A stretch of DNA of 64,000 nucleotides from an uncultured Chlamydiae bacterium. GTDB taxonomy: Bacteria > Chlamydiota > Chlamydiia > Chlamydiales > JAJFMA01. The stretch spans positions 3,776,001-3,840,000 of the forward strand of contig CAVQMM010000001.1 of the NCBI GenBank assembly GCA_963713615.1, read 5' to 3'. Positions 7,136 to 56,804 of the stretch are shown piece after piece. Both the position numbers and the translations under genes were made by a program. Under the pieces are notes generated by a model. That model did no database searches. It was not told where the DNA came from and saw only the letters and a program-made list of their open reading frames with translations. Within the stretch, counting starts at the first letter, position 1, and every line of letters starts with the position of its first letter.

Positions 7136-7198
7136 TTGATTTTCAAGCAAAGGTAATAAAGAAGTTATTATCCGAAAGTAGCAAGTTTGATTCCATGT

Positions 7199-7407
7199 GA
7201 CTCAAAAGGTTGGCTGGCGCAATTTCCTATGTGGCGCAGTCATTCCATGACTGCGGATGGACCTTCACCCACACAACCTCATGAAAAACAATCTTCTGTG
7301 GCGCAGTCATTCCATGACTGCGGATGGACCTTCACCCACACAACCTCATGAAAAACAATCCTTTGTGGCGCAGTCATTCCATGGGCGCCACATTGGAAAT
7401 TGCGCCA
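7199..7407. repeat. REP-like cluster, family B: three tandem TGTGG-CGCAGTCA-ttcca-TGACTGCG units (third truncated) at 67-bp period inside an outer inverted repeat
   Basis: Units start at 7230, 7297 and 7364; the two 41-bp linkers are almost identical; outer IR ggcgcaatttcc...ggaaattgcgcc. Confidence 0.85.
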
Positions 7408-19995: not shown

Positions 19996-20483
19996 TTTCC
20001 TCGTCATTGGGGTGCTAGCAATCACTGTGCCAAAAGTATTCATAAAGAACAACAGGCTCACTACCGAGTGCGGCATAACTCGTAAACTCCCGCTAGGGAA
20101 CATGCCTAGGTTGATGCGCGCGTATGGAACCTAGGCTGTCGGAAGGAAGGGGAATGTTTAGGTAATGGCAAAAAACGGTTTGTAGATGGGTCTTTAAGGT
20201 TAAAAAATAAAATAGGTAGATCTAAAAAAACAGCAAGAAAAATATTTTTATAAATTTAAAAAATATTTGTAGTTTTTTTTAGCATTTCCTGTGCGAGATA
20301 GCGGACCAACATGATTGAGTCGCATAGCTTAGCCACCCATTGATGGTTTTAGTGAACGGCTCGGATATCAAATATAGCTATCCGACGCAGAGGCATGCTG
20401 ATTTTTTTATAGGATCAGTTTTTGTTAATTGGTACCTCAATTTTTTTCTAGGAAAACGGGTATGAAATTATCGATATTTAAGG

Positions 20484-20637
20484 CATGGAATGACTGCGCC
20501 ACATAGGAAATTGCGCCAGCCAACTTTTTGAGTTACTTGGAAGTGCGGTGGCAAGCCACCGCACTTCAGAGCTTCAGAGTGCTGCGCGCGTGTTCGATGG
20601 TGTGTGTAGCACGAGACTTCTGCAAACCGGATGAACC
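20484..20637. repeat. Mosaic of repeats: inverted family-B REP, a gaagtgcggtggc-aa-gccaccgcacttc palindrome and an uninterrupted family-F right half
   Basis: 20484-20533 matches the reverse complement of 7199-7250; 20581-20625 matches 12927-12971 plus 13140 onward without the MITE. Confidence 0.8.
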
Positions 20638-44434: not shown

Positions 44435-46048
44435 TTGAAGATGGTAAAGCGACCTAAACGCATAGATTTTACTACAGAAGAGATTGAATCCCTCATTCAG
44501 AGGATCGAGAGTCAATCCCTTGATGTAGACGATTTTCCCTTGCTTGCCGATCTTGTGAGGGCAATGATATGGATGGAGGGATCTCTTCGAGAGCAGTCTT
44601 TGAGTATTGCAAGGCTCAAAGCTGTATTCGGAATAAAGACGGAAAGCGCACAGAAGTTAAAGAATCTACTGCGACCAAAAAAAAATGGAAGCGAGAAAGG
44701 GAAGAACACTTCTGAGGATACTTCAAACGAGAAGCCTTCTGATGCAGGTCCGGCAAAAGGGCACGGGCATCGACCAGCAAGCGATTATCAAGAAGCGCAG
44801 CTCATAAAAGTAGCCCACGAGGTCCTTAAAAAGGGCTCTACCTGTCCTGCGTGTGATAAAGGCAAATTATTCAATCTGGCTGCCGGAACGGTGCTTCGCA
44901 TTGTGGGGCAACCCTGGTTAAATGTGCATATCTACAAACCTGAAAGACTTCGCTGTCCTATTTGCCAACAGGTGTTCACCGCTAGACTACCCGAAGAGCT
45001 CTACACTGGATCAAGAATCGATAAGTCAGCTAAGGCTATTGTCTCGATTCTTAAATATCGCGGTGGCATGCCTTTCTATCGTCAAGAGCAAATACAGACC
45101 ATTTTGGGCAACCCTATTTCAGATACGGAAATTTGGGGGATGACCCATGATGTTGCAGAGTGTATGGAGCCCGTTTTCATAGAACTTTGCCAACTCGCCG
45201 CCAACTGTGAATGCCTTCACAACGACGATACGATGGCAAGAGTGCTTAGCCTTATGAAGGAAAACGAAGTAGCCAATCCAGAAAGGAAGGGAATATTCAC
45301 AACAGGCATTCTTGGAAAAGCACACGACCAAGAGATCGCCTTGTTTTTTACTGGAAGACAGCACGCAGGAGAAAATTTAAAAGATCTTTTGGATATGCGT
45401 GACGAGACTCTTCCAGTACCGATACAAGCTTGTGACGCTTTGTCGAGGAACATTCCAAAGAACCATTCCACTCAACTAGCCTATTGTAATGCCCATGCAC
45501 GACGTAATTTTTATGAAATCGCGTCGTACTGGCCTAATGAGTGCGTTAATGTAGTCTCGTCGTTTGACTTAGTATTTCTGAACGACAAAATAGCAAAAAA
45601 AGAAAGCCTGACCCCTGAAGATAGGCTAAAGTGGCACCAAGACAAAAGTGCTCCGATCATGAACAAGATGAGAGCCTATTGCAAAGACCTTATAGACTCC
45701 AAGCAAATAGAGCCCAATAGCAGTTTTGGGAGGGCTATTCAGTATCTTGATAATCACTGGGAGGGGCTGACCCTGTTCTTACGTATTCCTGGAGTTCCAA
45801 TCTCAAACAATGACAACGAACGTCAACTCAAAAGAGCTGTCCTTAATCGTAAGAACGCCTATTTTTTCAAAAATGAAACTGGAGCCAAAATTGCTGATAT
45901 TCTGATGAGTGTCATCGAAACCTGCGCTCTAAATAAGATCAATCCCTATAACTATCTCATAACAATCCAAAAGAATACTGAAAGTGTTTTAGAGAATCCC
46001 AAGGCTTGGTTGCCCTGGAATTATTCACACAACCTTGCTCCTCCTTAA
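44435..46048 (+). CDS. IS66 DDE transposase TnpC
   Basis: CPAC/CPIC Zn finger, PFYRQE, LHNDDT, CNAHARRNF, SNNDNERQLK. Confidence 0.93.
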   Translation: MKMVKRPKRIDFTTEEIESLIQRIESQSLDVDDFPLLADLVRAMIWMEGSLREQSLSIARLKAVFGIKTESAQKLKNLLRPKKNGSEKGKNTSEDTSNEKPSDAGPAKGHGHRPASDYQEAQLIKVAHEVLKKGSTCPACDKGKLFNLAAGTVLRIVGQPWLNVHIYKPERLRCPICQQVFTARLPEELYTGSRIDKSAKAIVSILKYRGGMPFYRQEQIQTILGNPISDTEIWGMTHDVAECMEPVFIELCQLAANCECLHNDDTMARVLSLMKENEVANPERKGIFTTGILGKAHDQEIALFFTGRQHAGENLKDLLDMRDETLPVPIQACDALSRNIPKNHSTQLAYCNAHARRNFYEIASYWPNECVNVVSSFDLVFLNDKIAKKESLTPEDRLKWHQDKSAPIMNKMRAYCKDLIDSKQIEPNSSFGRAIQYLDNHWEGLTLFLRIPGVPISNNDNERQLKRAVLNRKNAYFFKNETGAKIADILMSVIETCALNKINPYNYLITIQKNTESVLENPKAWLPWNYSHNLAPP

Positions 46049-46461
46049 TGAGCGATCTCGCCAGCAATTTCTAACTCTTCCTCTTCCACATGATGGATCT
46101 TGGCCGTTAAGTCCTTTAAGATCTCCTCGACGAGTTCTTCCAGAATTTTTGCATACCGCAAAAATTCAGGCCAAAGCACCTCTTCCATCAAATTTTTAGA
46201 AATCATCACATGAGCTGTAGTGCGCTTTTGGCGTGCATATCGATAGGTTTTATAACCATGTTTGGAGCAGAGCGTTGCAAAGAGCCGTCTTTTCCATGGA
46301 CTATCCAGAGAGATCTTGTACTCGATGGGCCGACTGGTGTGTATATCGGAAATTCTGGCTAAGATTCGTTGCTTGGCAAGCTCGGCTGCGTGGCGTTCTC
46401 CCTCAGAGGAAGCACGTTGAAGGAGCGCCTCGACTTTAGCCAATTTATCCAGATAGGACAT
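46045..46461 (-). CDS. Hypothetical protein (DUF2786-like N-terminus), IS66 passenger
   Basis: KLAKVEALLQRASSEGERHAAELA; SD ggag upstream; lies inside the right TIR. Confidence 0.8.
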   Translation of the reverse strand: MSYLDKLAKVEALLQRASSEGERHAAELAKQRILARISDIHTSRPIEYKISLDSPWKRRLFATLCSKHGYKTYRYARQKRTTAHVMISKNLMEEVLWPEFLRYAKILEELVEEILKDLTAKIHHVEEEELEIAGEIAH

Positions 46462-48302: not shown

Positions 48303-48559
48303 GCCCTCACAATCGTATCTCGGCGCGTAGCGCTTTGGAGCCCAAGCGATTGCGTCGTTAATATCCGAAAGTAATGAGGCTTCCTATGTGGCGCAGTCAT
48401 TCCATGACTGCGGATGGGCCTTCTCCTACATAACCTCATGAAAAGCAATCCGTTGCAAGCAAAACAACGTCCCATGTGAAGCAAACAGAAGTTGTTTCAA
48501 CTCGCAGTCATGGAATGACTGCGCCACATAGGAAATTGCGCCAGCCAACCTTTTGAGTC
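48303..48559. repeat. Family-C end (48303-48341) plus a family-B REPIN (inverted REPs at 48387-48412 and 48503-48528)
   Basis: tgtggcgcagtcattccatgactgcg ... cgcagtcatggaatgactgcgccaca; ends in ggaaattgcgccagccaaccttttgagtc, the reverse complement of 7199-7227. Confidence 0.85.
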
Positions 48560-48718: not shown

Positions 48719-50806
48719 ATGAAACGCTTTTTCTCAAGTGTTTTTAAATGTCTTTCCTTACTCTCGCTGTCGCTCACCCTACACGTAGGTGCTGTACCGG
48801 CTGCAACGTTAACATCTCCTCTTGTACGACTCTCGGGGAATGTTCCAAACATGGCATCGATCCATGCACATTTCTTAGAAAAGCTTGATGCCAGTACAAA
48901 TGTTCCTGTGACTTTCGTTTTGCCGCTGCGCAACCAGCAGGAACTGGAAGAACTATTACAACGTATTCATGATCCTGCCGATCAGGAACATTACGGTAGG
49001 TATCTTACCTCTGAAGAGTTTATCGAGCGGTTTTCTCCCACTCAGGAAGATTATGATAAAGTTATTGCTTATGCAAAAACAGTAGGCTTGACTGTTCGCA
49101 ACGCACACTCTAATCGCACGCTACTGAATGTTGTAGGGCGAGCACGATCCATTGAAGGGGCTTTTAATCTCCGCCTTAGCAAGTATGAGACGCCTCAAGG
49201 TCGGAAATTTTATGCTCCCAATAACAACCCTGAAGTGCCAGCGGCCATTGCCTCCATCATTAGTGGAGTCGTGGGGTTGGATAACCTTGCAGTATGGCGT
49301 CCGTTTAACCAACGAAAACAGATACCAGCAGAGCTGGAGTTGGATGCAACACCCAACACATCCCCTTCGGGTCCTGGAGGAGGCTATTCTCCTGCTGATA
49401 TCGTGACGGCTTATAACCTCACAGGGGTATCAGCTAATGGATCTGGTCAGGTCATTGCTCTGTTTGAGCTTGCGGGATATCAAGTCAGCGACATCAATAC
49501 ATATACGACCCAGTTTGGTTTACCTGCCGCTAAGTTGCAGAATATTTTAGTTGATGGTGGTTCCAGCAGTGGTATTGATGGCGAAGTCACTCTTGACATC
49601 GAGCTTGCACTTGCGTTAGCACCAGAAAGTCAGATTTACGTCTACGAAGGCCCTAATTCGAATCAAGGCGTTTTGGATACATACAATCGGATTGCTACAG
49701 ACAACATTGCCAAGCAAGTGAGTACTTCCTGGGGAATGGCAGAAGATCTAGTGAGTTCTCAGTATTTTCAAGCTGAAAACGCTATTTTTCAACAGATGGC
49801 AGCACAGGGGCAGACCATTTATGCTGCTGCTGGCGATAGCGGAGCCTACGATGATCCAAACAAGACCACTCCTGTGGTCGATGATCCCGCTTCTCAGCCC
49901 TACGTTGTTGCTGTAGGGGGGACTAGCCTTACAGTAGATCCAAACACCGGAGCCTACCAAAGTGAAACGTGCTGGGATAATGGCGCGGGTAATGGAGCTG
50001 GCGGAGGTGGTGTCAGTGCCGTTTGGCCAATTCCTTCGTGGCAAGCAGGTTTATCTACTGCCTCTTCACAGACGAATCGAAACGTTCCCGATGTTTCGCT
50101 CAACGCGGATCCAAATACAGGCTATTCTATTTACTACGATGGTCAGTGGACGTTATTTGGAGGGACGAGTTGCGCGGCACCTCTTTGGGCTGCTTTTACT
50201 GCTCTTGTAAACCAAGAGAGAGTAGCCAGTCAAAAGGCGGTATTAGGCTTTGCTAATCCCATCATTTATTCGCTTGCTGCTGGACCTTCGTATGAAGTGG
50301 ATTTTAATGATGTGACAACGGGTAATAATTTATATTATTCCGCTCAGGTGGGTTATGATAATGCGACGGGATGGGGCTCTTTTAATGGTGCAAATTTGTA
50401 TGCAAGCCTAATAAATGCTGCACCAGTGTCTCAAACTTCTCAGCTTTCACCTCTTTTGAATATTGCCCTGACACACAGAGTCTCCTTTAACAAAGGACAA
50501 ATCGGTGCCTATTACATTGAAGTTTCTAATCACGGCAACGAGCCGGCCTCCGGGGTAGTAACCGTGGCGGTTACTCTTCCAAAAAGCCTTATATATCACT
50601 CATTCAGTGGTTTGGGATGGACTTTTAACAAAGCAACATTAACGTTTTCGCGCGATAGCACACTGACCCCCGGTTCAAGCTATCCACCGATAATATTGTA
50701 CGTGGATGTGAAGCATGGTGCGCCGAATTCGGTGACTACAAAAGCCGTCCTATCAGGCGGTGGGTCGGTTGCCAGCACGGTCACGAATTCAACTCCTATC
50801 AAGTAA
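48719..50806 (+). CDS. Secreted S53 (sedolisin/kumamolisin) peptidase with prodomain and a C-terminal Ig-like domain
   Basis: Signal peptide, YG.YLT.EEF.ERFSP prodomain, EVTLDIE, AAAGDSGA, RNVPDVS, GGTSCAAP, GYDNATGWGS. Confidence 0.93.
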   Translation: MKRFFSSVFKCLSLLSLSLTLHVGAVPAATLTSPLVRLSGNVPNMASIHAHFLEKLDASTNVPVTFVLPLRNQQELEELLQRIHDPADQEHYGRYLTSEEFIERFSPTQEDYDKVIAYAKTVGLTVRNAHSNRTLLNVVGRARSIEGAFNLRLSKYETPQGRKFYAPNNNPEVPAAIASIISGVVGLDNLAVWRPFNQRKQIPAELELDATPNTSPSGPGGGYSPADIVTAYNLTGVSANGSGQVIALFELAGYQVSDINTYTTQFGLPAAKLQNILVDGGSSSGIDGEVTLDIELALALAPESQIYVYEGPNSNQGVLDTYNRIATDNIAKQVSTSWGMAEDLVSSQYFQAENAIFQQMAAQGQTIYAAAGDSGAYDDPNKTTPVVDDPASQPYVVAVGGTSLTVDPNTGAYQSETCWDNGAGNGAGGGGVSAVWPIPSWQAGLSTASSQTNRNVPDVSLNADPNTGYSIYYDGQWTLFGGTSCAAPLWAAFTALVNQERVASQKAVLGFANPIIYSLAAGPSYEVDFNDVTTGNNLYYSAQVGYDNATGWGSFNGANLYASLINAAPVSQTSQLSPLLNIALTHRVSFNKGQIGAYYIEVSNHGNEPASGVVTVAVTLPKSLIYHSFSGLGWTFNKATLTFSRDSTLTPGSSYPPIILYVDVKHGAPNSVTTKAVLSGGGSVASTVTNSTPIK

Positions 50807-50841: not shown

Positions 50842-51517
50842 TCTATACTATAGACCTGTTTTTCAAGTCTTTGCAGGTCTGGACTAGCCATAGTAGCATC
50901 ACTGCAGCCTTCCCACCGTCTTAAACATGCAGCGCGCGCTTTCATGCATCTTCTACATCTTCCTGCTGCACCAGTCACAATTTTTATCCCTAGGCTTATT
51001 CCCGTCCTAAACGACCGACTTGGATTGACTGAACAATGGGTAAAACATAGCATTATAAACAAACTGACGACATTTGTTAGCCAGAGTGTAAACTTCGACC
51101 CATGGGAATTAGTCGATGTAATTATCCTGGGGATTCTTCAGAGTGATTAACCTAAGAGTGTTAACTATTACCTGAAAAGTTCACGAACCTGCGCAGGATG
51201 GTGTGTAGAGTAGAAAAAGATCGGAGGAGGAAGGATTCGAACCTTCGTCACCAGTGCTGGTGAATCTGTTTTCGAGTCCGTGCTATTTCTACACTGTCCA
51301 ACACTGTACAAAACACAACAACAGAAAAATCAGTGAGTTACAAACTGCTCGATTGTTGCTCACGATTGCCACTTGCTGCTGCTTTTCGGCCAACATAGTG
51401 ACATGACAGAGACATCATGTCAACGCTTCAAAATCAAAGAAATGCTTCTTTGTCAAAATCGAGAATTGTGGGGATTTTTTATCATCGAGAAGAGGGACCA
51501 AACGAGAGGGCTCTGGA

Positions 51518-52108
51518 TCAGTCTAATGGAGTTTCGATTTTGCGTCTCAGGGTGTCAATCTTATCCTGAATGTTCTCGATGTGCTTTTGTAGGGATGTGC
51601 CATTGGGTTCAATATTCATCAAGCAATTTTGTAATTGCTTTTTTTGACGCTCTAAATCATCTATCCATTTAACACATAGCGTTCGGTCTTTTCGAAGCTG
51701 AATGCGTTGAGGGGCGTTGAGGCGAAGTCTATTAATGTTCCAAATCGCTGCTTTGGTCTTTGCCACCCATTCTGGATTAGTGCGATCATAGTGTTGGTCG
51801 AAATCATGGTTACAAGGATTTAGGATGAAGTGCTGAAGCAATCGCATGAGAGGAGTCGGCCAAAAGTCACTTTTGAAGATATTACATCTGCTACAAGAAT
51901 AAAATAGATTTAAATAGTTACTGCTTTCTGAGGGGAATCGTTTTTTTGGCTTGTAATGGTCGATATGGAACTTTCCACTACCGCCATCTTCCGCTTCATG
52001 AGTGTCACAATAAGCACATCGGTGGCTAAAATCGATTCTTAGAAATTGCTTGTAAGTTCGATAGTCAACGGAAAAGGGAGGTGATTGATTTCGCTTTTTT
52101 AAAGCCAT
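51518..52108 (-). CDS. HNH endonuclease with a C-terminal coiled coil
   Basis: LR.DF..RCAYC, FHIDHYKPK, YLNLFYSCSRCNIFKSD. Confidence 0.92.
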   Translation of the reverse strand: MALKKRNQSPPFSVDYRTYKQFLRIDFSHRCAYCDTHEAEDGGSGKFHIDHYKPKKRFPSESSNYLNLFYSCSRCNIFKSDFWPTPLMRLLQHFILNPCNHDFDQHYDRTNPEWVAKTKAAIWNINRLRLNAPQRIQLRKDRTLCVKWIDDLERQKKQLQNCLMNIEPNGTSLQKHIENIQDKIDTLRRKIETPLD

Positions 52109-52545
52109 TATCCAACAATATTCCTCCTAGAATTGTACTTTTGGATGAGCTCTTCATTGTCATTTATAAGGTTTTCTATAGCAGTGGCAGTTCTTTCCCG
52201 ATCATCCCTTTGAAGTGCAATTATCTGATATTCGATTTGATCAAGTTGCTTATCAATTACTTCGAGCTCTCTTTTTTTGCCAGGTCTTAGAAATAATAAT
52301 ATGGAATCCAATAATTTTGTTCTTTTTTCAATTAATTGCTGTTGAGTTTGATATAGTTCCTCAATCTTAACATGCGGGAGAGCTGGCAATGTTGTGGGGG
52401 TAAAATTGGATTCGAATGTTTGTGCCAAGTTTGGTCTTTCTGATCGTAAGTCAGCTTCTTCCCTATATAGATATCTCTGAGTGACAACGAGGTATTGTGC
52501 TTGCGGATATCGCTTAAAGGTGTCGATATTTTCAAATTCAATCAT
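52108..52545 (-). CDS. Hypothetical coiled-coil protein
   Basis: 145-aa ORF coupled to both neighbours (ATGA and TAATG overlaps). Confidence 0.8.
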   Translation of the reverse strand: MIEFENIDTFKRYPQAQYLVVTQRYLYREEADLRSERPNLAQTFESNFTPTTLPALPHVKIEELYQTQQQLIEKRTKLLDSILLFLRPGKKRELEVIDKQLDQIEYQIIALQRDDRERTATAIENLINDNEELIQKYNSRRNIVG

Positions 52546-53288
52546 GCTGGAGCTCCATCCAAAAGAACACGCATCTTTTCTTGTAGTATGCTTTCGAAAA
52601 TTTCCTTTAGCAAATCATGGCAAGCCAAGGTTTTTTCCAAAATATCCTTTGGATCTGTGATGATATTTTTTGTGATGAAAGAGTCAATATCTAAAATGAA
52701 TGCAACTCCATTCTCGTTAGGCTTAAGAGAATCGGATGCAAATCTAATTTTTGCAAAGATGTCATTAAATTCCTTTAGAAGCGTTATGTCAAATCCACTT
52801 GATCCAAAAAGCGAGTCTGGAAGAGCTAATCCAAGACGAAAGTAGTCCGTGATGGCTACGCTCTCGCTAGGAATTAGGAATCTGTTAATGCACCTAAATC
52901 CCACTTTTTTAGTTTCAAGAGGCTTTGCGCAGTCAAAATAACTACTCAATAGTAGATCAATAGATTGAGTGAATTTTTGCCAGCAAAGATACTTTGTGTC
53001 GTTAGCAGCGACAATTCCAGGTCCAATCTGCAAACAGCTGGTGCGTTCTTCATTCCACGCCTGCATCAAAGGTGCTTGAATCAGGGGTTGATCCTTAACC
53101 TGTGAAGATGTGGTCCCCACAGCAAACGTAATGACATTGAGATCGTTCTTCCTGGGGAATTTCTTGCGGATTTTATCAAAGAATTGGCCAGGTAGCGTAC
53201 TATCAAAGCTTTCCAGGGAGAATTTAGCTTCAAAGATAGCCTCTTGCAAAGGGGCGTTTTTATAATGGTATCTTTGGTATGTTCCCAT
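52542..53288 (-). CDS. TIGR04255-family protein
   Basis: YKNAPLQEAIFEAKF, LQIGPG......Y..W..F, KVGFRCINRF, FILDIDSF, H...KEIFESIL pattern recognised by eye. Confidence 0.8.
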   Translation of the reverse strand: MGTYQRYHYKNAPLQEAIFEAKFSLESFDSTLPGQFFDKIRKKFPRKNDLNVITFAVGTTSSQVKDQPLIQAPLMQAWNEERTSCLQIGPGIVAANDTKYLCWQKFTQSIDLLLSSYFDCAKPLETKKVGFRCINRFLIPSESVAITDYFRLGLALPDSLFGSSGFDITLLKEFNDIFAKIRFASDSLKPNENGVAFILDIDSFITKNIITDPKDILEKTLACHDLLKEIFESILQEKMRVLLDGAPA

Positions 53289-53502
53289 ATTGTCTAGCCC
53301 ATTACCCGCTTATTGCTCAGCATTGAACGTTCTGCTGCTTTTCGGTCACCATAGTGACATGAGAGTGGCGCGGATGTCAACCATCTAAAAACAACATTGA
53401 TACATTGGATAGCCAGGGCTTGCATATGAATCCATAATTCTATCACAGGACCGGCAAACATACAGCCATAGAAAGCATCTCAAGTGTAGAATAGAAAAAG
53501 AT

Positions 53503-53589
53503 CGGAAGAGGAAGGATTCGAACCTTCGTCACCATTGCTGGTGAATCTGTTTTCGAGACAGACGCATTCGGCCACTCTGCCACTCTTCC
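53503..53589 (-). tRNA. tRNA-Ser (anticodon CGA)
   Basis: GGAAGAG acceptor stem, anticodon arm TCTGT-CTCGAAA-ACAGA, long variable arm, GGTTCGAATCC; 87 nt, CCA not encoded. Confidence 0.95.
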
Positions 53590-53705
53590 AAGTGAAGCCG
53601 GAGTAACAGCATGCCATAGCCATCCCCAAGTTTCAAGTAATTCCGATCTCGACAAAAAAAGGGCATCGGCAGATCATTTGGAAGCCCAAACAAGCGAGGA
53701 TTGAC

Positions 53706-54272: not shown

Positions 54273-54317
54273 GGTAATTGCAGAAGTCCTGTGAGATGGT
54301 CAGATGACTTTTAAAGC

Positions 54318-54603
54318 CCTCACAATCGTGTCTCGGCGCGCAGCGTTTTGGAGTGCGTGTCGCTCGCGACCGCTTTGGATTTGGGCGAGCCTATTGAATC
54401 GCGCACCGTTCTTTGGAGGCTTAAACCCCCACAGTTACCCCTAGAGCGAAAGGTTACGTTTCTTGCAATGCCTAGTTCACCCAAATCCAAAGCGGTCGCG
54501 AGCGACGCGCACTCCAAAGCGCTGCGCGCCTATTTACGAAGTTAGTTGCTTAAGTTGATGCCTATGGCTCCAAAGCGCTCCGCTCCGAGAGACTATTGTG
54601 AGG
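54318..54603. repeat. Family-C REPIN-like palindromic element, copy 1
   Basis: cctcacaat...ttggagtgcgtgtcgctcgcgaccgctttggatttggg...ccaaatccaaagcggtcgcgagcgacgcgcactccaaag...attgtgagg. Confidence 0.85.
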
Positions 54604-55326: not shown

Positions 55327-55357
55327 GTTATCGGTCCCTAAGGATGTTGCGCAAAAT

Positions 55358-55588
55358 CCTCACAGTTGTGTCTCGGCGCGCAGCGCTTTGGAGTGCGTGT
55401 CGCTCGCGACCGCTTTGGATTTGGGCGAGCCTATTGAATCGCGCACCGTTCTACGGAGGCTGCACCCCCCCCACAGTTACCCCTAGAGAGAAGGGTTACG
55501 TTTCTTGCAATGCCAACTTCGCCCAAATCCAAAGCGGTAGCGAGCGACCGCACTCCAAAGCGCTGCGCGCCGAGTAGCAATTGCGAGG
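55358..55588. repeat. Family-C REPIN-like palindromic element, copy 2
   Basis: Highly similar to 54318-54530; nested inverted arms. Confidence 0.85.
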
Positions 55589-55626
55589 GCTCCATTTGCT
55601 GTTACCCTAAAATATCGCAGAAAGAT

Positions 55627-56516: not shown

Positions 56517-56804
56517 GCTAGTACCGGGGAAAGGATAGAAAGCGGTTGGCACTAGCGACAGCAATTTCCTATGTGGCGCAGTTATTCCATGTCTGACAAC
56601 TTCCGGTAGCTCTATTTCTAATCACACTATTTTAATTCTTCAGTCATCTTTATTTCAATAGTTAATTCAAATTACTCTTGTATTTCATTAAAATAGTAAA
56701 TTAATTTTTACAATTAAATTATTAGTTGCAATAATGAGTTTGTAGGGCCGTGGTGGTGGTGAAAGAAAGCAAAACTTGAATTGAACCTAATACATGGTTG
56801 GAAC

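Follow-up and report, generated by a model that had tools for sequence, protein, structure and literature searches.

The 64,000-bp stretch analysed here (hereafter the window) lies in the chromosome of an uncultured Chlamydiae bacterium (contig CAVQMM010000001.1, positions 3,776,001 to 3,840,000) and carries a small island in a serine tRNA gene. The island encodes a protein of the TIGR04255 family, a middle protein referred to as X, and an HNH nuclease. Its integration target, an intact tRNA-Ser(CGA), is located at 53502..53590 on the minus strand (ARAGORN). A comparison of the 74-bp direct duplication at this site identified two attachment (att) copies on the minus strand that differ by 3 mismatches. 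One is the att core that overlaps the 3' half of the tRNA (53484..53557), and the other is a displaced copy (51203..51276) made up of the 3' 56 bp of tRNA-Ser(CGA) and 18 bp downstream. The duplication starts at tRNA position 34, where the anticodon loop begins (the anticodon is at 36), and continues 18 bp past the tRNA 3' end. The two copies enclose 2,207 bp, whose contents are three minus-strand genes. By the criteria for tRNA islands of tyrosine integrases, the tRNA 3' duplicate from the anticodon loop is present and the island's own integrase is absent; PF00589 has 9 matches in the genome, none of them in or near the island. A preliminary description made from the DNA letters had proposed an att-type duplication from the anticodon loop and an island of about 2.2 kb that lacks an integrase, and both proposals are confirmed.

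The three genes are joined by overlapping stop and start codons (the junctions read ATGA and TAATG), and their GC content of 35.8-40.3% is 6-11 points lower than that of the chromosome (46.8%), in agreement with the preliminary description. The first gene (52542..53288, minus strand) encodes a 248-aa protein, the predicted gatekeeper. It had been called TIGR04255-like, and it scores 117 bits against the NCBIfam cut-off of 30, and the match spans positions 2-250 of the 252-position model; Pfam and PADLOC gave no family at E<=0.1. The second gene (52108..52545, minus strand) encodes X, a 145-aa predicted antitoxin for which NCBIfam, Pfam and PADLOC gave no family (one Pfam row at E 0.096). In an alignment of its relatives (33 proteins at E<=0.001, X itself counted), a variable N-terminal region of about 60 aa is followed by a conserved helical C-terminal part. 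The third gene (51518..52108, minus strand) encodes the predicted effector, a 196-aa HNH nuclease with a PtuB-like core and a C-terminal coiled coil. It matches PF01844 with 25.5 bits (cut-off 21.4) and PADLOC PtuB1 at E 2.7e-17, and residues C31, C34, D50, H51, N67, C72, C75 and N76 are invariant in 9/9 aligned relatives, so the nuclease is indeed as intact as it had appeared. It is highly improbable that the island holds decayed cargo that no longer works. The missing integrase and the 3 mismatches between the att copies could be read in that way, but all three overlapping frames are intact, the invariant residues are kept and the proteins match their relatives over the full length.

Ten stretches from relatives and from the same genome were compared at the site. 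In a same-genus genome (G001), an identical tRNA has no duplicate within 8 kb beyond it, which represents an empty site. Another same-genus genome (G003) has a 2-kb att island at tRNA-Ser(TGA) with HicA- and HicB-like genes, whose scores fall just below the Pfam cut-offs, and in genome G022 an AbiE pair lies between tRNA-Ser(CGA) and a partial tRNA copy. Toxin-antitoxin genes recur as cargo at the tRNA-Ser site, and the tRNA-island setting given in the preliminary description is supported. The island end adjoining the displaced att copy (51277..51413) is conserved, as judged by its likeness to the island end in G003: positions 51214-51413 (200 bp) share 78.5% identity with the end of the HicAB-carrying tRNA-Ser island, and a weaker match is found at the island end of a Waddliaceae locus (L021). 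Identical island pieces of 151-210 bp were present in 4/4 public runs compared, one of which is possibly the assembly's own source. No excision joints were found in four contig sets, in which cover is patchy. The RNA run covers a flanking gene as well and therefore cannot show transcription of the island.

The three genes also occur together elsewhere, so the first ground on which the preliminary description would have fallen, a lack of co-occurrence, does not hold. The order TIGR04255-X-HNH was found in ten non-redundant loci, nine of which form one branch (SH-aLRT 100) that includes one proteobacterial genome. The tenth is a separate acquisition, and HNH arose at least 2 times on this quick tree. 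The Waddliaceae locus L021 carries the trio with tRNA-Ser(CGA) and a 76-bp duplicate 4.3 kb away in an island without an integrase, and L084 encodes the same proteins in genome G211, which falls in one order with the window's genome and so places the latter in Chlamydiota. In two further loci (L042 and L086) the HNH trio lies at tRNA-Pro, and in L022 it stands beside an integrase.

The island itself is ordinary; the finding is the pattern at the level of the family. TIGR04255 scores exceeded the cut-off in 41 of 401 Chlamydiota genomes, 20 of 301 Bacteroidota genomes and 47 of 401 genomes of one proteobacterial class (43 when the unpublished G449, G551, G706 and G718 are left out). Relatives are also present on plasmids and, in one case, in a phage record; a pattern search of viral contigs gave no relative. 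A total of 145 loci were gathered, which came to 124 after merging at 90% identity; a duplicate of L002 (L015), a locus from an unpublished genome (L146), a locus with no frame (L176) and the loci of the DS-42 system described below were left out before merging. Because the loci are the best-scoring ones, at most 30 per genome search, the sample is not random. The 124 loci comprise 13 in one clade without partner genes and 111 others, 10 of which end early or have no gene call. Among the 101 loci with two downstream genes called, both downstream gaps are 40 nt or shorter in 90. As a control, 55 loci were read further, and this coupling was seen between genes 2 and 3 in 52/55 and between genes 3 and 4 in 15/55. 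The order TIGR04255, X and toxin therefore holds well beyond what the preliminary description had guessed, and the recurrence and coupling of the genes support its claim that the trio is one conserved module. The same genome has a second cassette at about 312160-313630 of the chromosome (G000:C1; L002, also L015:6160-7632), with a TIGR04255 protein, an 85-aa protein and a PIN protein. The next gene after this PIN gene encodes an AAA_14/DUF4143 ATPase. Longer fused TIGR04255 forms were absent from 7,994 candidates, which is weak evidence. In one Bacteroidota locus (L037:273-2222), TIGR04255 is fused behind about 400 residues that have no Pfam or NCBIfam match.

The third gene varies in type. 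In the 101 loci, it encodes PIN in 12, HNH in 10, HEPN in 7, MazF in 2, and Fic, GNAT, zeta and YhaV in 1 each (35 together); DUF7689 is found in 3, and 63 third genes are unnamed, including a mis-called tRNA synthetase at L152. These labels are based on a Pfam match or on clustering with a match (three were assigned by clustering), and several HEPN, two HNH and one PIN match fall below the Pfam cut-off. On a quick tree with long branches, the effector labels require 27 changes, compared with a minimum of 14 and with 77 after shuffling. The cargo has therefore been exchanged repeatedly: it is passed down with the first gene, yet it has been swapped many times. A fixed first protein paired with many predicted toxin-type enzymes is a widespread cassette. 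The middle proteins, of which 0/67 in the first set pass a Pfam cut-off, change together with the third gene. The clusters of both agree with an adjusted Rand index of 0.71 (100 loci), and in 307 of 394 pairs of loci that share a middle-protein cluster the effector cluster is also common to both. Middle proteins thus behave as cognate antitoxins would. In addition, the first 60 aa of the middle proteins contain 19.4% Ser+Thr, compared with 11.5% in effector N-termini, and the value is higher in 80 of 96 comparisons. One type of tail on otherwise unrelated middle proteins points to a common partner.

Three large groups occur among the unnamed effectors, represented by L085/L038/L159 and kin (about 22 loci), L083/L127/L133 and kin (about 17 loci) and L027/L056/L142 and kin (about 14 loci). 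The members scanned had no Pfam, NCBIfam or clear PADLOC match, and the groups are candidate new toxin families. In the largest group, an R...S...H pattern is reminiscent of ADP-ribosyltransferases, although this label is unconfirmed; no solved structure was matched when the group was searched as a profile. The unnamed effector L056 matched only unnamed clusters in the ESM Atlas.

Together, the constant first gene, a middle gene that varies along with the toxin and the tail common to unrelated middle proteins suggest a gated toxin-antitoxin mechanism, as the preliminary description had supposed for the trio. From gene order and co-variation, X and HNH are likely to form an antitoxin-toxin-like pair. 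X would hold the HNH nuclease shut through its helical C-terminal half, while the TIGR04255 protein would shield the N-terminal tail of X by binding to it. An infection signal would displace the grip of TIGR04255, and the nuclease would be released. Its target may be DNA or tRNA, the latter being a candidate because related PtuB systems are reported to cut tRNA-Tyr in the available parts of two sources (PMC12673091, PMC13096335). The binding steps, toxicity, trigger, target and defence role are all steps that we infer, and for the mechanism as a whole we consider the chances evenly balanced.

The preliminary description had compared the trio to a toxin-antitoxin-chaperone (TAC) arrangement. 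This stands as an analogy and fails as membership. In the accounts of TAC available in part, the toxin and antitoxin are followed by a SecB chaperone, and the addiction element is found at the antitoxin C-terminus (10.1101/2024.02.24.581848; PMC11618068). The cassette resembles TAC systems (HigBAC, MqsRAC, CmdTAC) in its three-gene operon layout, here deduced from the overlapping stop and start codons of the genes, in its interchangeable toxin-antitoxin warheads with a fixed third component, and in an antitoxin with a low-complexity tail; an anti-phage role has been shown for TAC and is proposed for the cassette. However, TIGR04255 comes first and the effector last, both here and in the surveyed loci, whereas the TAC chaperone comes last. 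The TAC addiction element is C-terminal and rich in key aromatics, whereas the low-complexity tail of X is N-terminal, Ser/Thr-rich across the family, and the C-terminal part of X is a conserved helical region. An internal repeat is present in the 248-aa first protein, which Pfam does not match to SecB, and the TAC toxins named in the available parts of the sources do not include HNH, PIN, HEPN, MazF, Fic or zeta. The TIGR04255 cassette is not a TAC, though by analogy it may work like one. Septu and the retron Ec78 PtuAB share a PtuB-like HNH nuclease with the island, as the PADLOC PtuB1 match indicates, but the island nuclease scores only 27.4 bits against the NCBIfam PtuB cut-off of 150. As stated in the preliminary description, no ATPase or reverse transcriptase is encoded by the three genes between the att copies, and membership of Septu and Ec78 fails because PtuA is missing. 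The trio matches no named system in PADLOC (2023 version) or NCBIfam, which is also what had been expected.

The closest system with a reported phenotype is DS-42 (working name PRO1) of DefensePredictor, which according to Tables S6-S8 of PMC13092281 consists of a 238-aa protein, a 190-aa protein and a metallo-beta-lactamase (MBL) hydrolase. One table row of this source gives protection against phage Bas1 with a -log efficiency of plating of 1.1, smaller plaques and the pBAD flag set. DS-42 shares with the cassette a coupled three-gene order in which a first protein of about 240 aa comes before a middle protein rich in Ser/Thr (27% in 60 aa), with an enzyme in last place. The first protein, DS-42A, has the same predicted order of strands and helices and the same top BFVD match (A0A515MGR4) as TIGR04255, and the models of the two have the same top three viral fold matches. 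In contrast, DS-42A is not TIGR04255 by NCBIfam, the effector is an MBL hydrolase rather than HNH, and the middle proteins cannot be aligned by eye. An hhalign comparison of DS-42A with TIGR04255 gave a score of 22.8 (E 0.0075, probability 5%), which is above 11/11 controls (maximum 15.8). DS-42 is a probable remote relative of the TIGR04255 cassette. In addition, at least 8 TIGR04255 proteins are listed in Table S4 of PMC13092281 as putative novel defence genes, which were untested there.

These observations also bear on the purpose of the cassette. Small islands could use a gated toxin-antitoxin machine for addiction or maintenance, or the machine could act against plasmids, instead of acting against phages. 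The recurrence of the cassette in tRNA mini-islands lacking integrases and on plasmids agrees with such a role. Chlamydiota are mostly host-associated, and phage pressure there is uncertain, which fits it as well. On the other hand, one relative occurs in a phage record, the DefensePredictor model predicts the family as defensive, and DS-42 reduces plaquing and lies on a prophage-type contig, presumably between lysis and Q-like genes. An addiction or anti-plasmid role is therefore decidedly unlikely.

Two known names were checked and set aside for the cassette. 6A-MBL was one of them. The PADLOC candidate PDC-M32 was the other: in another TIGR04255 subfamily, the middle proteins show a weak match to the C-terminal part of the PDC-M32A model (E 3e-5 to 1e-4), but positions 1-250 of that model correspond to a different protein, of 306 aa, which stands before a PIN-like gene, and PADLOC found no match of PDC-M32 to any window gene. 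In L179:1483-2819 and L180:920-2262, a PDC-M32A-like protein and a PIN-like gene are located directly behind a gene that we take, from its translation, to be type I restriction specificity-like. The PDC lists, as available in part (10.1101/2024.01.29.577857), were covered through the PADLOC models.

The AlphaFold2 model of the TIGR04255 protein (pLDDT 89) consists of two repeats of a strand, a helix, three or four strands and a helix. Its fold matches include TBP, TBP-like domains, AdoMet decarboxylase, Rep initiators and guanidino kinases, and no score exceeds the background level (best Z 7.5-8.2); "doubled TBP-like" is therefore a description and not an assignment. SecB was not among the matches listed in the whole-model fold searches. 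Against solved structures, phmmer gave nothing below E 0.3, and the ESM Atlas returned only unnamed or TIGR04255 clusters. The residues conserved in 99 cassette members include Y100 (100%), F231, R132 (94%), D200 (90%), R128, E16, D202 and H224. From the alternation of strand residues in the model, we infer that the conserved residues line one groove. Residues G130, D200 and D202 are conserved in 74-90% of cassette members and are replaced, in one event, in the 13-member clade without partners, which counts in favour of the gated mechanism. In this clade (L036, L087, L090, L092, L094, L095, L100, L101, L104, L105 and L107-L109; mostly family f5), which comprises 13 non-redundant Chlamydiota loci, TIGR04255 stands directly before malate dehydrogenase and citrate synthase, a possible domestication of a defence part. 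A complex prediction of TIGR04255 with HNH and X scored 0.81, compared with 0.77 for a control in which another chain took the place of the first, so it is not evidence either way.

The three genes are also flanked by a second, inner direct repeat that the preliminary description did not mention, with 55 of 68 aligned bases identical. Copy A (about 51355..51424) ends in a TGACAT-N-ATGTCA palindrome and continues the island end common to same-genus G003 (L011:5750-5831). Copy B (about 53313..53382) lies 25 bp upstream of the TIGR04255 start and, as a guess, may be a promoter or operator. By blastn, the genome holds only these two copies. A promoter scan gave 7 sites, compared with 5.2 expected by chance, and copy B was not listed. 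A palindromic repeat just upstream of the operon would suit an explanation in which the two genes for X and HNH are sufficient as a toxin-antitoxin pair. In that case TIGR04255 would not guard X but would bind nucleic acid, as an operon regulator, a sensor or a substrate clamp. The model matches to TBP-like domains, TBP itself and rolling-circle Rep point in the same direction, and so do the conserved R128 and R132 on a central strand. Moreover, two tandem TBP-like domains work with the anti-phage nuclease in RnlA/LsoA and bind substrate in RnlA, according to the part of PMC8266594 available. In RnlA, these domains are fused to HEPN, whereas TIGR04255 is a separate protein that resembles TBP-like domains at background Z; the fold matches listed for the TIGR04255 model do not include RnlA. 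This explanation is unlikely. Its fold scores are at background (best Z 7.5), blastn did not find the upstream repeat at the other trio loci, and it leaves the common Ser/Thr-rich tail on unrelated middle proteins unexplained.

The tail could instead be a substrate. TIGR04255 could act as a modifying enzyme on the Ser/Thr-rich tail of X, or on the toxin, which would make the switch covalent rather than a chaperone-like grip. Guanidino kinases and McsB are at or near the top of the fold matches for both the TIGR04255 model (Z 8.2, rmsd 3.5, 168 aligned) and DS-42A (Z 8.1, rmsd 4.1, 164 aligned), and a polar set of E16, Y100, R128, R132, N/D135, D200, D202 and H224 is conserved in 70-100% of the 99 members. 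However, a Z near 8 is the stated background of the search, identity is 4-9%, and the consensus of the DS-42A family does not have the same polar set. A modifying enzyme is thus quite improbable.

Several points weigh against the gated toxin-antitoxin mechanism and its defence role. Most third genes (63 of 101) belong to no named family, and calling these toxins is an extrapolation. The tail of X in the island itself contains only 13.6% Ser+Thr (7.1% in the rest), which is below the family mean. The 13-locus partnerless clade indicates a use of TIGR04255 outside cassettes, and the first protein is not plug-and-play, because the labels are clustered on the tree (27 changes compared with 77 shuffled). 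The link to DS-42 is weak at the hhalign values given above, neither the DS-42A nor the TIGR04255 profile finds the sequences of the other at E<0.001, and the protection by DS-42 is modest in the one row found. The loci were picked by score or by similarity to the query, related loci are not independent of each other, and the flanks do not reach far enough for defence-island enrichment to be measured. The patterns behind the case come from sequences and models. A bolder proposal is that TIGR04255 defines a second gated toxin-antitoxin immunity class, independent of SecB and present in about 7-12% of sampled genomes in three bacterial groups. In this class, a doubled TBP-like protein would grip the N-terminal Ser/Thr-rich tail on unrelated antitoxins, sense infection by competition for its groove and control a dozen toxin chemistries, several of them unnamed, and DS-42 would be a remote active member. 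This proposal is tentative, and we hold it to be somewhat doubtful.

The name "TIGR04255" occurred in 0 full texts of the literature searched, which leaves most subscription papers outside its scope, and no description of the three-gene layout was found there under related wording. The cassette is real, conserved and undescribed within this literature, and it is possibly a three-part toxin-antitoxin defence variant that may form its own class. A family of unknown function thus heads a fixed three-gene layout with exchangeable predicted toxins. If the first protein is a gatekeeper, a new route of toxin switching would exist in parallel to that of SecB-type TACs, and the gatekeeper model would offer a testable mechanism for DS-42. 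Since most third genes are unnamed, the cassette is also a handle for new toxin families.

Other features of the window and genome were recorded. Partial tRNA duplicates at tRNA-Asn, -Met, -Thr and -Leu of the same chromosome (G000:C1) mark more islands, some of which have integrases; three tandem partial duplicates follow tRNA-Leu(TAA) at 3.47-3.50 Mb. Just outside the island, at window positions 48719-50806, a secreted-looking kumamolisin-type protease with a weak DUF11 tail is encoded. At 44435-46461, an IS66 transposase above its cut-off abuts an orphan of 138 aa that is encoded on the other strand. A palindromic repeat of about 250-290 bp, resembling a miniature inverted-repeat transposable element or a repetitive extragenic palindrome, is present at 54313-54600 and 55353-55600 and has at least 10 further chromosomal copies at 89-98% identity. 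Other palindromic repeat families are located at 7191-7387, 20476-20542, 48376-48559 and 56561-56595.

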